Origin: a virus
Taxonomy: Duplodnaviria > Caudoviricetes
Virus record (IMG/VR): IMGVR_UViG_3300042914_002678
DNA length: 64,000 nucleotides
Direction: 5' to 3' (one strand)
Shown: in pieces, positions 21,687 to 63,657 of the stretch
Numbering within the stretch: position 1 is the stretch's first letter
How the letters are laid out: each line of letters starts with the position of its first letter
The notes under the pieces: generated by a model
Database searches by the model: none
What the model saw: the letters and a program-made list of their open reading frames with translations, nothing else
Told to the model about the DNA's origin: nothing
Translations under genes and position numbers: made by a program

Positions 21687-21768
21687 TCATGGGTGTTGAG
21701 GGTCCAAACCTCAAGTAAATCCTACCCCTCCCATGCCTCTCACAGAAGCACAAACAGGGAGGTCTCTT

Positions 21769-26721: not shown

Positions 26722-26845
26722 TAGGTGGTGGAGTCAATATGACCCCTTGGTTTCTTGCTTTTCCTCAAGAGCAAGTGGTGCGGATGGGGAATTCTTTCTC
26801 CGCCTGGTTTCCAATTTCCAGTTAAAGAATTGGTGGCGAGCCTGA
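26722..26845 (+). ncRNA. manA-like (manA/wcaG class) cyanophage structured RNA
   Basis: Two tandem modules, GGTTTCTTGC...GAGCAAGTGGTGCGGATGG and CTGGTTTCCAATTTCCAG...AATTGGTGGCGAGC, the second an H-type pseudoknot. Resembles the manA motif as I recall it; needs a covariance-model check. Confidence 0.65.
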
Positions 26846-26852
26846 GTTACCG

Positions 26853-56990: not shown

Positions 56991-57051
56991 AAATAGGTAA
57001 ACAAATGTTACGAATTTCTCACAATTCTTAACATTGTCAAACACCCCGCAA

Positions 57052-57150
57052 ACCGAGACCTCTAGGGTGTATAAATTACGTCTCTCATATCCCCGCTAAG
57101 GGTGCGGGGAGCATAGTATCTCCACCATTTCCCTGATGGTCTTACTATCC
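57052..57150 (+). ncRNA. PhotoRC-II-like structured psbA leader
   Basis: gagac...gtctc stem, ccgc-taagggt-gcgg and accat-ttccctg-atggt hairpins, flanked by atagta/tactat. Location and motifs match the cyanophage psbA-leader RNA as recalled. Confidence 0.7.
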
Positions 57151-62680: not shown

Positions 62681-62998
62681 ATGCTCTCTACTCAATACCG
62701 TCTTCGCCTTGAAGCAATCTGCGAGAGAATTGTGAAAGGCGAATCTGTAGAGTTAAGTGAAATGATATGGGCAGAAAAACTAGCAAAGGCAAATCGTTCT
62801 GCCTCAACTATTTTAAGACAAGCAAGACGCCGTGCTGCTAATCCTGATATGCAGGAAGGTGGTTTAGATGACTTTATGAATGCATTGGATTTGGGAGATC
62901 CTGATCCATCAAATCATAAAACTAGATTCAATGGTGCTGATGATATTATAGATTTCTTTAGTCAGGATAAACCAGAAGACTGGCGTACTAGAGATTAA
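62681..62998 (+). CDS. Conserved cyanophage hypothetical protein
   Basis: 105-aa ORF MLSTQYRLRLE... Confidence 0.8.
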   Translation: MLSTQYRLRLEAICERIVKGESVELSEMIWAEKLAKANRSASTILRQARRRAANPDMQEGGLDDFMNALDLGDPDPSNHKTRFNGADDIIDFFSQDKPEDWRTRD

Positions 62999-63000
62999 AA

Positions 63001-63053
63001 TTGTAACAAAAGTTACAAAAGAATTTACCTATATAGAGCGATGGGTCTATAAT
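63001..63053 (+). promoter_or_regulatory. NtcA-type box and promoter
   Basis: ttGTA-acaaaagt-TACaa (GTA-N8-TAC, 63003-63016). TTTACC (63024), 18 nt, TATAAT (63048). Confidence 0.65.
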
Positions 63054-63060
63054 ACCCTTA

Positions 63061-63153
63061 CGTTCATCCAGGAAACTGGACGCAAGTAGGACGGCGGAAC
63101 GGAACGTTCATTTGCTATTCGCAAATAGCAAACGCAAACCGCCCGAAGGAACG
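63061..63153 (+). ncRNA. Tandem Downstream-peptide / glutamine-II riboswitch-like RNA
   Basis: Two units of CGTTCAT-[hairpin]-ACGCAA...GGAACG (63061-63101 and 63105-63153), upstream of a YRG-motif peptide. Confidence 0.8.
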
Positions 63154-63185
63154 GGATTAACCATCTCATTCTGGAGGAAATCCTA

Positions 63186-63323
63186 ATGTCTAAAGTAGTG
63201 TATCGTGGCGTAGAGTATGATACTCAAAAGCGTCTTGAGTATCAACAGCAAATGATGCAACAACCCCAACAATACAACGAAACATACCGTGGTATTAAGT
63301 TTGTAAAAGAGGGGCACAAGTGA
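63186..63323 (+). CDS. DUF4278-like peptide (45 aa, two YRG motifs)
   Basis: Manual: MSKVVYRGVEYDTQKRLEYQQQMMQQPQQYNETYRGIKFVKEGHK*. GGAGG SD. Confidence 0.8.
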   Translation: MSKVVYRGVEYDTQKRLEYQQQMMQQPQQYNETYRGIKFVKEGHK

Positions 63324-63421
63324 TGCAAAAACTTAATGCACTTCAACTCATTAAAGAGCAGAAGCAAAAAGAAGAGAGACGTAAACAAGCGTCTCTTGCT
63401 ACGCTAGTAGCAGCAAAATAA
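63323..63421 (+). CDS. Small basic helical peptide (32 aa)
   Basis: Manual: MQKLNALQLIKEQKQKEERRKQASLATLVAAK*. TGATG coupling. Confidence 0.6.
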   Translation: MQKLNALQLIKEQKQKEERRKQASLATLVAAK

Positions 63422-63424
63422 TAT

Positions 63425-63463
63425 AAGAGGGTTCTTGACGAACCCTCTTTTTTTGTATATAAT
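63425..63463 (+). terminator. Intrinsic terminator whose loop is the -35 box of the next promoter
   Basis: aagagggttc-TTGAC-gaaccctctt plus T-run. TTGACG, 17 nt, TATAAT (63458). Confidence 0.85.
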
Positions 63464-63486: not shown

Positions 63487-63657
63487 ATGGATAGAGAAAA
63501 GCTTAAATTGATTGTCAAAAACCTTGAGTCTCTGGTAGAATGCTTAAAGTCAGAAGTTTATTCTGATGTAGATTCATATAAAATGAACTACGAAGAGATT
63601 ACACAACACATTACTGATTACGACGAAGTATTTTATGACGGAGATGAAGATGACTGA
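63487..63657 (+). CDS. Small acidic hypothetical protein (56 aa)
   Basis: Manual: [27 protein letters not shown]...DEDD*. Confidence 0.7.

Follow-up and report, generated by a model that had tools for sequence, protein, structure and literature searches.

A promoter-to-terminator cassette of a cyanomyovirus with an NtcA-type box, a putative nested double glutamine aptamer and two coupled small peptides

The window analysed here is a 64,000-nucleotide (nt) stretch of the IMG/VR record IMGVR_UViG_3300042914_002678, and its source is a T4-like cyanomyovirus (Kyanoviridae) whose closest relatives are Synechococcus phages. Positions 63002-63456 form a compact promoter-to-terminator unit, which holds an NtcA-consensus palindrome, a sigma-70-type promoter, two CGTTCA...GGAACG units (63061-63101 and 63105-63153, 3 nt apart), two small open reading frames (ORF1 and ORF2) and an intrinsic terminator (Table 1). 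Related cyanophages hold over 70 distinct cassettes of this type, in which each of the elements is conserved. A first-pass annotation of the sequence had described a self-contained, host-style nitrogen-sensing module consisting of a perfect palindrome, a promoter, two tandem aptamer-like units, a DUF4278-like peptide with YRG repeats, a coupled basic helical peptide and a terminator. With the exception of the arrangement of the two units, this description holds: both units are present, but the Rfam alignment, the covariation and the linchpin pairs detailed below indicate that they are not tandem aptamers and that one is nested in the P3 arm of the other.

Table 1. Features of the cassette and other RNA features of the window.
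Feature	Position	Strand	Basis or remark
NtcA-consensus palindrome TGTA-N8-TACA, TGTAACAAAAGTTACA	63002-63017	+	sequence
sigma-70-type promoter TTTACC-N18-TATAAT	63024-63053	+	promoter scan, 10/12 consensus matches
Putative interlocked double glutamine aptamer	63061-63153	+	RF01739 and comparative data
Outer aptamer P1	63061-65 with 63149-53	+	
P1a-1	63067-71 with 63076-80	+	covaries
J1 ACGCAAGUA	63080-88	+	
P3 long-range helix GGACGG/CCGCCC	63089-94 with 63139-44	+	covaries
Loop-E strands AGUA and GAA	63085-88 and 63145-47	+	flanking P3
Inner core P1', loop GAA	63097-101 with 63105-109	+	
Inner core P1a-2	63111-19 with 63124-32	+	covaries
Inner core J2 ACGCAAA	63132-38	+	
Predicted linchpin pairs	C63083 with G63154; C63135 with G63102		
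3' leader / expression platform	63154-63185	+	sequence, folding
Shine-Dalgarno GGAGG	63173-77	+	8 nt before ORF1 ATG
ORF1, 45-residue DUF4278-family peptide	63186-63323	+	two YRG beta-hairpin motifs around Gln-rich spacer
GAGG of ORF2	63309-12	+	10 nt upstream of ORF2
ORF2, 32-residue basic helical peptide MQKLNALQLIKEQKQKEERRKQASLATLVAAK	63323-63421	+	ATG overlaps ORF1 stop (TGATG)
Intrinsic terminator	63425-63456	+	10-bp GC-rich stem (63425-63449), 5-nt loop, T7 run
Transfer RNAs (tRNAs), n=12	between 8114 and 25940		
abiF small RNA	21727-21763		curated RNA match, 44 bits
wcaG RNA	26746-26847		curated RNA match, 94.5 bits
PhotoRC-II	57029-57124		curated RNA match, 82.6 bits

At the curated Rfam thresholds, the sole match in the cassette region was RF01739 (Glutamine-I, glnA RNA), which scored 40.5 bits at 63059-63157 against a cut-off of 35 and covered model positions 1-53 of 53. 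This alignment joins the first CGUUC to the final GAACG and leaves 63091-63142 as a 52-nt insert in P3. RF01704 (Glutamine-II, Downstream-peptide) matched unit 1 alone (63058-63107) at 27.3 bits and failed its cut-off of 33; thus, of the two covariance models named in the first-pass annotation, the glnA model recognises the RNA and the Downstream-peptide model does not. On the nested reading, the outer part is a canonical Glutamine-I junction and the inner core is circularly permuted at the far end of P3, so that the leader would hold its second aptamer within the P3 arm of the first and would not be a tandem of the beads-on-a-string type.

The comparative data on P3 carry this reading. The helix pairs the stretch after AAGUA of unit 1 with the stretch before GAA-GGAACG of unit 2, in the same register in three sequence types, AGUCG/CGACU, AGCCGACN/N'GCCGACU and the GGACGG/CCGCCC of the window (which includes one A.C mismatch), and compensatory changes are found at several of its positions among relatives. 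A cross-pairing of the two units had been proposed earlier through GGCGG/CCGCC. A long-range helix between them is indeed supported by covariation, but the register first proposed lies four bases off and runs into the first GGAACG, and it was dropped in favour of the register common to all relatives. In an alignment of 25 distinct compact cassettes, 93.6% of the cells were paired in the nested fold, compared with 83.8% in shuffles; the covariation score was 0.269 versus 0.095 in shuffles, a value reached by 0 of 500, and partners slid out of register scored no higher than 0.079. Both-sided changes were observed in five of the eight P3 pairs, one of which appears as GC in 6, UA in 6 and AU in 3 cases with zero mispairs, while two positions are conserved C.A or A.C mismatches. 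P1a shows both-sided changes in all five of its pairs; P1 is invariant and hence uninformative.

A larger sample was obtained by scanning IMG/VR with the junction pattern CGGAACG-N1-6-CGTTCAT, which returned at least 119 loci; 76 cassettes could be parsed among the matches listed, and 75 of these were distinct. In all 75, the fourth base of J1 (ACG[C/G]AAGUA) can pair with the base after the distal GGAACG, as C-G in 59 and as G-C in 16 distinct sequences. Similarly, the base after the proximal GGAACG is a G opposite the C of J2 in 74 of the 75, and the inner joining strand ACGCA is kept in 74 as well. In the Glutamine-II structure 6QN3, the corresponding long-range pair C19:G41, between a joining-strand C and the G after GGAACG, closes the ligand helix (PMC6698751). 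The linker between the middle GAACG and CGUUC measures 3-6 nt and never the 1-2 nt that the pattern would permit, as a hairpin loop needs that length. Each core retains those nucleotides that are known from solved structures to build the glutamine pocket. Glutamine binding is predicted with high confidence for the outer site, and it is somewhat favoured for the inner one.

The palindrome upstream of the promoter contains a perfect GTA-N8-TAC core at 63003-63016. Box and promoter were counted over 71 distinct relatives, and in 41 of these upstream regions (among the matches listed) a perfect GTA-N8-TAC starts between -62 and -52 from the first CGTTCA; the background of 0.0037 per 11-nt window in the fetched loci corresponds to a chance expectation of about 0.26 of 71. 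The window holds 19 perfect boxes of this kind, and only the one at 63002 sits in a promoter context. Among relatives the arms GTA and TAC are invariant and the centre and outer bases vary, a pattern expected where a protein binds and not where a hairpin is kept. In addition, the motif is identical to the consensus applied to NtcA sites in marine cyanobacteria and cyanophages (PMC3037559), and NtcA sites are known at host DUF4278 genes (PMC6212724). Thus, the box is genuine and probably NtcA-bound, and on the strength of the consensus NtcA is the likely protein. Its centre (63009.5) lies about 41 bp from the -10 centre and at about -50 from the predicted start (63059-63061), which places it farther upstream, by one helical turn, than class II activators bind and, as far as a predicted start allows, neither at the -41.5 or so of activation nor over the -10 or the start as in repression. 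This offset favours the alternative that TGTA-N8-TACA is bound by another factor, or is kept as a hairpin or an upstream part of the promoter. The box of the window can indeed form a perfect 6-bp hairpin, and in S-H34, S-B68 and six further contigs a GTA-N8-TAC nearer to the aptamer coincides with a covarying hairpin. However, the invariant arms, the identity with the consensus and the host precedent all count against this alternative, which we consider about half as probable as recognition by NtcA.

The promoter is also retained among relatives, in which TTGAC(T) comes 7-8 nt past the box and, after another 17-18 nt, a TAnnnT -10 element that ends 7 nt before the aptamer. Several further features were observed in this region. 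The -35 element is overlapped by a late-promoter-like CTATATA (63029-63035), which is CTAAATA in many relatives, and the -10 element lies in the loop between the inverted arms GGGT (63043-46) and ACCC (63054-57). Inverted repeats around the -10 also occur in relatives, where the arm sequences differ but stay complementary (mean arm 5.5 versus 3.9 in shuffles). Such a hairpin would exist as RNA only in transcripts begun farther 5', and it may point to an additional, late start site. In S-H34 (L010:864-877) and S-B68 (L009:841-854), a T4-late-type TATAAATA replaces the sigma-70 promoter; in these two cassettes a GTA-N8-TAC palindrome falls at the expected start site, which is the repressor-site position of the Prochlorococcus MED4 IF17-like gene, and coincides with the covarying hairpin class. 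GTA-N8-TAC at -19 was found in six IMG/VR loci among the matches listed.

For the leader, an alternative to two binding sites is that the outer aptamer alone senses glutamine, the inner copy being an extension of P3 or a decoy GAACG that competes for the first CGUUC; in a switch form of this idea, the duplicated strands would toggle between a tandem-like fold (off) and the nested fold (on). The AGUA/GAA loop-E motif of Glutamine-I is missing from the inner core, whose binding may therefore be weak or absent. In addition, the nested fold of the window (-34.5 kcal/mol) is isoenergetic with the minimum-free-energy fold (-34.6 kcal/mol), and in relatives the inner hairpin loop or stem accommodates a whole gene. 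However, Glutamine-II aptamers bind their ligand without loop E (PMC6698751), and the retention in 74 of 75 sequences of the inner ACGCA and of the G after the proximal GGAACG, with a Watson-Crick linchpin, would be needless for a purely structural arm; we therefore regard a single-sensor leader as improbable. The plain minimum-free-energy fold of the leader reached a z of only -1.9, and so weak a single-sequence signal neither finds nor excludes the nested fold. Two independent tandem aptamers, each binding alone and together giving a steeper, pseudo-cooperative response, as in the 157 glutamine doublets classed in this way by Sherlock et al. 2022 (PMC9481103), are very improbable, because although both local pairings can form and unit 1 by itself has a partial match to the Glutamine-II model (27.3 bits), that match is under the cut-off of 33, the 3-nt spacing leaves no space for a separate expression platform, a covarying helix connects both units, and local pairing would place G.G and C.C at the linchpins of 16 distinct relatives in which the nested pairing is Watson-Crick, as it is in 75 of 75.

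The window cassette is a compact form of the leader. In most related cassettes the inner-aptamer hairpin encloses a conserved ORF of 49-66 codons (for example L003:710-878, L007:1007-1224 and L008:995-1179); this form accounts for about 48 distinct IMG/VR loci among the matches listed (including L018 and L024), and no such enclosed gene is found in the window. The ATG of the enclosed ORF is located in the 5' stem strand, 9-11 nt past CGTTCA, and its end, W-D-A-N/K-D-stop, is encoded by the conserved core UGGGACGCAAACGACUGA; exactly 7 nt separate the end of its stop codon from that of the unit. A different insertion was observed in S-H68 (L014:976-1548) and RN05-S (L011): precisely where the middle GGAACGGAGCGT adjoins the second CGTTCA, both carry a gene of about 190 codons that resembles homing endonucleases. 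The N-terminus of this gene reads IYYTYY...GYIGS, it is annotated as HNH in RN05-S, and its insertion point corresponds to the loop of the inner P1' hairpin in the nested fold.

Between the aptamer and ORF1 there is no terminator, and control is thus most likely translational. In the window, GGGAU (63153-57) is able to pair with AUCUC (63163-67) or with AAUCC (63179-83), around the Shine-Dalgarno sequence. Relatives fall into two leader classes: the class of the window is shared with S-PM2, S-CAM7 and others, and in the other class CUCUU comes immediately after the distal GGAACG and pairs with AAGGAG, in the anti-Shine-Dalgarno arrangement proposed for gifB. By analogy with Klahn 2018, glutamine probably switches expression on, albeit with limited confidence.

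ORF1 is assigned to the DUF4278 family on the strength of its sequence relatives: all 36 aligned members of its family match the domain at E <= 0.01 (best E 1.8e-13), and ORF1 itself matches phrog_5049 with an E of 4e-11. The family invariants are the two YRG motifs and Y11. Its variable columns are concentrated at the third codon position (31, versus 13 and 7 at the others). The AlphaFold2 model is a hairpin-helix-hairpin of moderate confidence (mean predicted local distance difference test score, pLDDT, 68.8), and the ORF1 profile found nothing under E 0.1 among the sequences of the Protein Data Bank (PDB). DUF4278 is the N-terminal part of IF17 and not its glutamine-synthetase-binding part, and short IF17-like proteins with this domain lack the C-terminal residues that IF17 needs for binding glutamine synthetase (PMC6212724). 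ORF1 likewise consists of the DUF4278 part only, without the IF7-like C-terminal region, a distinction drawn from the published description rather than from an IF7 sequence. Two side features of the gene may be mentioned. The spacer at 63243-63275 is Gln-rich (8 Q in 45 residues, QQQMMQQPQQ) in this lineage only; it is pure speculation that a Gln-rich peptide behind a glutamine sensor may add a translational dependence on Gln-tRNA. A second perfect GTA-N8-TAC at 63210-63223, inside ORF1, corresponds to the codons for the conserved peptide GVEYDT and is best explained as a coding by-product.

ORF2 recurs as a coupled ORF in many related cassettes, and its variable columns show the same codon bias (26 at position 3, versus 13 and 10). 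Its helix, LNxLxxIKxQ...AQL, is found fused N-terminally to the YRG module in Bellamy-type proteins (phrog_545) and C-terminally to it in L099-type proteins, a family of 68 clusters. Taken together, the recurrence, the codon bias, the GAGG of its own and the fusions at both ends indicate that ORF2 is a real and functionally linked module. It had no Pfam match at E <= 1 and no PHROG family, and its profile found nothing under E 0.1 among PDB sequences. When the N- and C-terminally fused forms served as protein queries, close relatives were retrieved, nearly all of them on contigs that do not exceed phage-genome length; a search of species-representative genomes with the fused form for a host counterpart returned only three phage-like contigs inside metagenome-assembled genomes. 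In the ESM Atlas the peptides fell in unnamed clusters only, and the FliJ/YscO look-alikes of ORF2 found there (scores <=0.87) were set aside as probably generic charged helices. A complex prediction for ORF1 and ORF2, each supplied as an alignment, gave a score of 0.00, which is no answer and carries no weight either way. The two peptides may act jointly on a host nitrogen-assimilation protein; that this would be glutamine synthetase specifically is possible but doubtful.

The unit is closed by the terminator, with a fold of -16.9 kcal/mol and a z of -5.42 that 0 of 200 shuffles reach. Its loop and 3' arm hold the -35 element TTGACG (63435-40) of a near-consensus promoter (63435-63463, 11/12 matches) that serves the next gene, and terminator and promoter are thus interleaved. 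This next gene is a small member of the phrog_878 family (63487-63657), and a gene of the phrog_507 family ends at 62998 on the 5' side; neither family has an assigned function. Syntenic cassettes were found by BLAST in S-PM2, Bellamy, S-CAM7, S-B68, S-H34, DSL-LC02/03, S-SRM01, S-RIM32, S-SM2 and S-CAM9, and different neighbour genes precede the cassette in different phages, in keeping with the self-contained module proposed at first. The cassette is a stand-alone gene unit, probably an early gene. It is not present in the nearest genome record. Elsewhere in the window, speD and thyX are found, together with the tRNA cluster and the RNAs of Table 1.

From these elements, the following mode of action can be proposed. 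Host RNA polymerase would start at about 63060 from the sigma-70-type promoter, with the NtcA-consensus box just upstream of its -35 element, and the leader of about 125 nt would fold as one interlocked double sensor. Pairing between the first CGUUC and the final GAACG would close the outer Glutamine-I aptamer, whose P3 would carry the inner permuted core at its far end. This core would be built from a capped hairpin, in which the middle GAACG pairs with the middle CGUUC, together with the second hairpin and ACGCA. Two ligand sites would thereby be joined via one short helix and share one expression platform, and a cooperative response, already suggested for the two units in the first-pass annotation, is plausible with two cores on a single platform. 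Glutamine would lock the distal GGAACG-G into the aptamer and remodel the 3' tail that bears the Shine-Dalgarno sequence, which would raise translation of the 45-residue DUF4278 peptide and, via the TGATG overlap and the GAGG of ORF2, of the 32-residue peptide as well, before the strong terminator ends the unit. This logic appears to mirror the cyanobacterial control of DUF4278/IF17-type genes.

Several observations weigh against this reading. All four CGUUC/GAACG strands are invariant, two of them fixed by the search pattern, so that their partners are deduced only from the covariation of P3 and of the linchpins, and the inner core is without loop E. Ensemble modelling of 25 cassettes revealed no consistent change in Shine-Dalgarno accessibility between the free and the aptamer-constrained leader (mean unpaired fraction 0.26 versus 0.28; 0.30 versus 0.14 in the window). 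The position of the box centre at about -50 fits no established NtcA geometry of activation or repression, and since the promoter is near consensus, with a good -35 and -10 already, an activator should not be needed. ORF1 of the window taken alone is below the DUF4278 (PF14105) cut-off (19.1 bits, E 0.0017; cut-off 25.3). Metatranscriptome contigs of relatives, which span 63064-63424 only, show similar sequence in RNA libraries; as they come from related phages, they prove neither transcription of the cassette nor its start site. Weighing these points, we consider it likely that the cassette combines a host-style promoter and box, a nested double glutamine sensor and two coupled peptides. The further view that a two-site cooperative sensor of new topology and host NtcA together time a two-part peptide effector, which retunes nitrogen flow in infection, is speculative and rather unlikely to hold in full; within it, glutamine synthetase, PII or PipX may be the target.

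Several components of the cassette have precedents. Glutamine aptamers are already known in cyanophages (PMC5473149; PMC9964418), of which McCown et al. 2017 found only two; the tandem occurrence of glutamine aptamers (PMC2864571; PMC9481103) and NtcA boxes in cyanophages (PMC3037559) have also been published. In the literature searched, which did not cover Ames and Breaker 2011, no description was found of a nested, helix-sharing fold, of the fixed box position or of the second peptide family; the nested fold and the second peptide thus appear to be undescribed. Phage riboswitches are regarded as rare, and tandem glutamine riboswitches are treated as independent units. The unit described here, a complete nitrogen-sensing module in the style of the host, is found again in over 70 distinct cassettes of cyanophages. 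If both pockets bind, nature would have arrived in this leader at a compact form of cooperative amino-acid switch. Neither micro-protein belongs to a family of known function, one of them being without any family, and both are small enough to be synthesised and assayed. The cassette also gives direct access to the question of how viruses that abound in the sea and in fresh water sense, and may reset, nitrogen status in the cells behind much of aquatic primary production.

Among known systems, the cassette most resembles gifB of Synechocystis sp. PCC 6803 (PMC6212724), with which it has in common the NtcA-consensus box and, in the 5' untranslated region, a glnA-type aptamer directly before a DUF4278 region, and presumably a translational control in which glutamine switches expression on. 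Glutamine riboswitches act as ON switches before DUF4278 genes, one of which has an NtcA site in Prochlorococcus MED4; host gifB and this MED4 IF17-like gene are NtcA-repressed from sites over the -10 or the start (PMC6212724). The cassette differs from gifB as a phage copy whose aptamer is double and, in our reading, nested instead of single, and whose box is upstream of the -35 rather than over the -10 or the start site. In contrast to IF17, its peptide has 45 residues and lacks the IF7-like glutamine-synthetase-binding C-terminus, and a second coupled peptide follows.

A comparable likeness exists to the Glutamine-II (RF01704) IF17-like genes of picocyanobacteria, the host group of the phage. 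These loci, for example the yfr6 locus of MED4, also have short YRG DUF4278 peptides, an NtcA site in the promoter and the aptamer core CGUUCA...ACGCA...GGAACGG; the RNA of the window, however, scores above the cut-off of Glutamine-I and below that of Glutamine-II. In the cyanobacterial genomes surveyed, the two classes are mutually exclusive, Glutamine-II being found in marine picocyanobacteria and Glutamine-I in other cyanobacteria (PMC6212724).

With the tandem glycine riboswitch the leader would share two homologous amino-acid-binding cores coupled to one expression platform, and possibly cooperativity. The glycine cores lie side by side and communicate through tertiary contacts, whereas the second core of the cassette appears to be inserted, circularly permuted, in a shared helix. 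Finally, two glutamine cores close together are also the hallmark of the tandem glutamine doublets (PMC9481103; first noted in PMC2864571), and the window cassette probably belongs to that catalogued set. These doublets have been described as tandem or pseudo-cooperative (PMC9481103, PMC2864571), while our comparative analyses point to a nested arrangement in the cassette.

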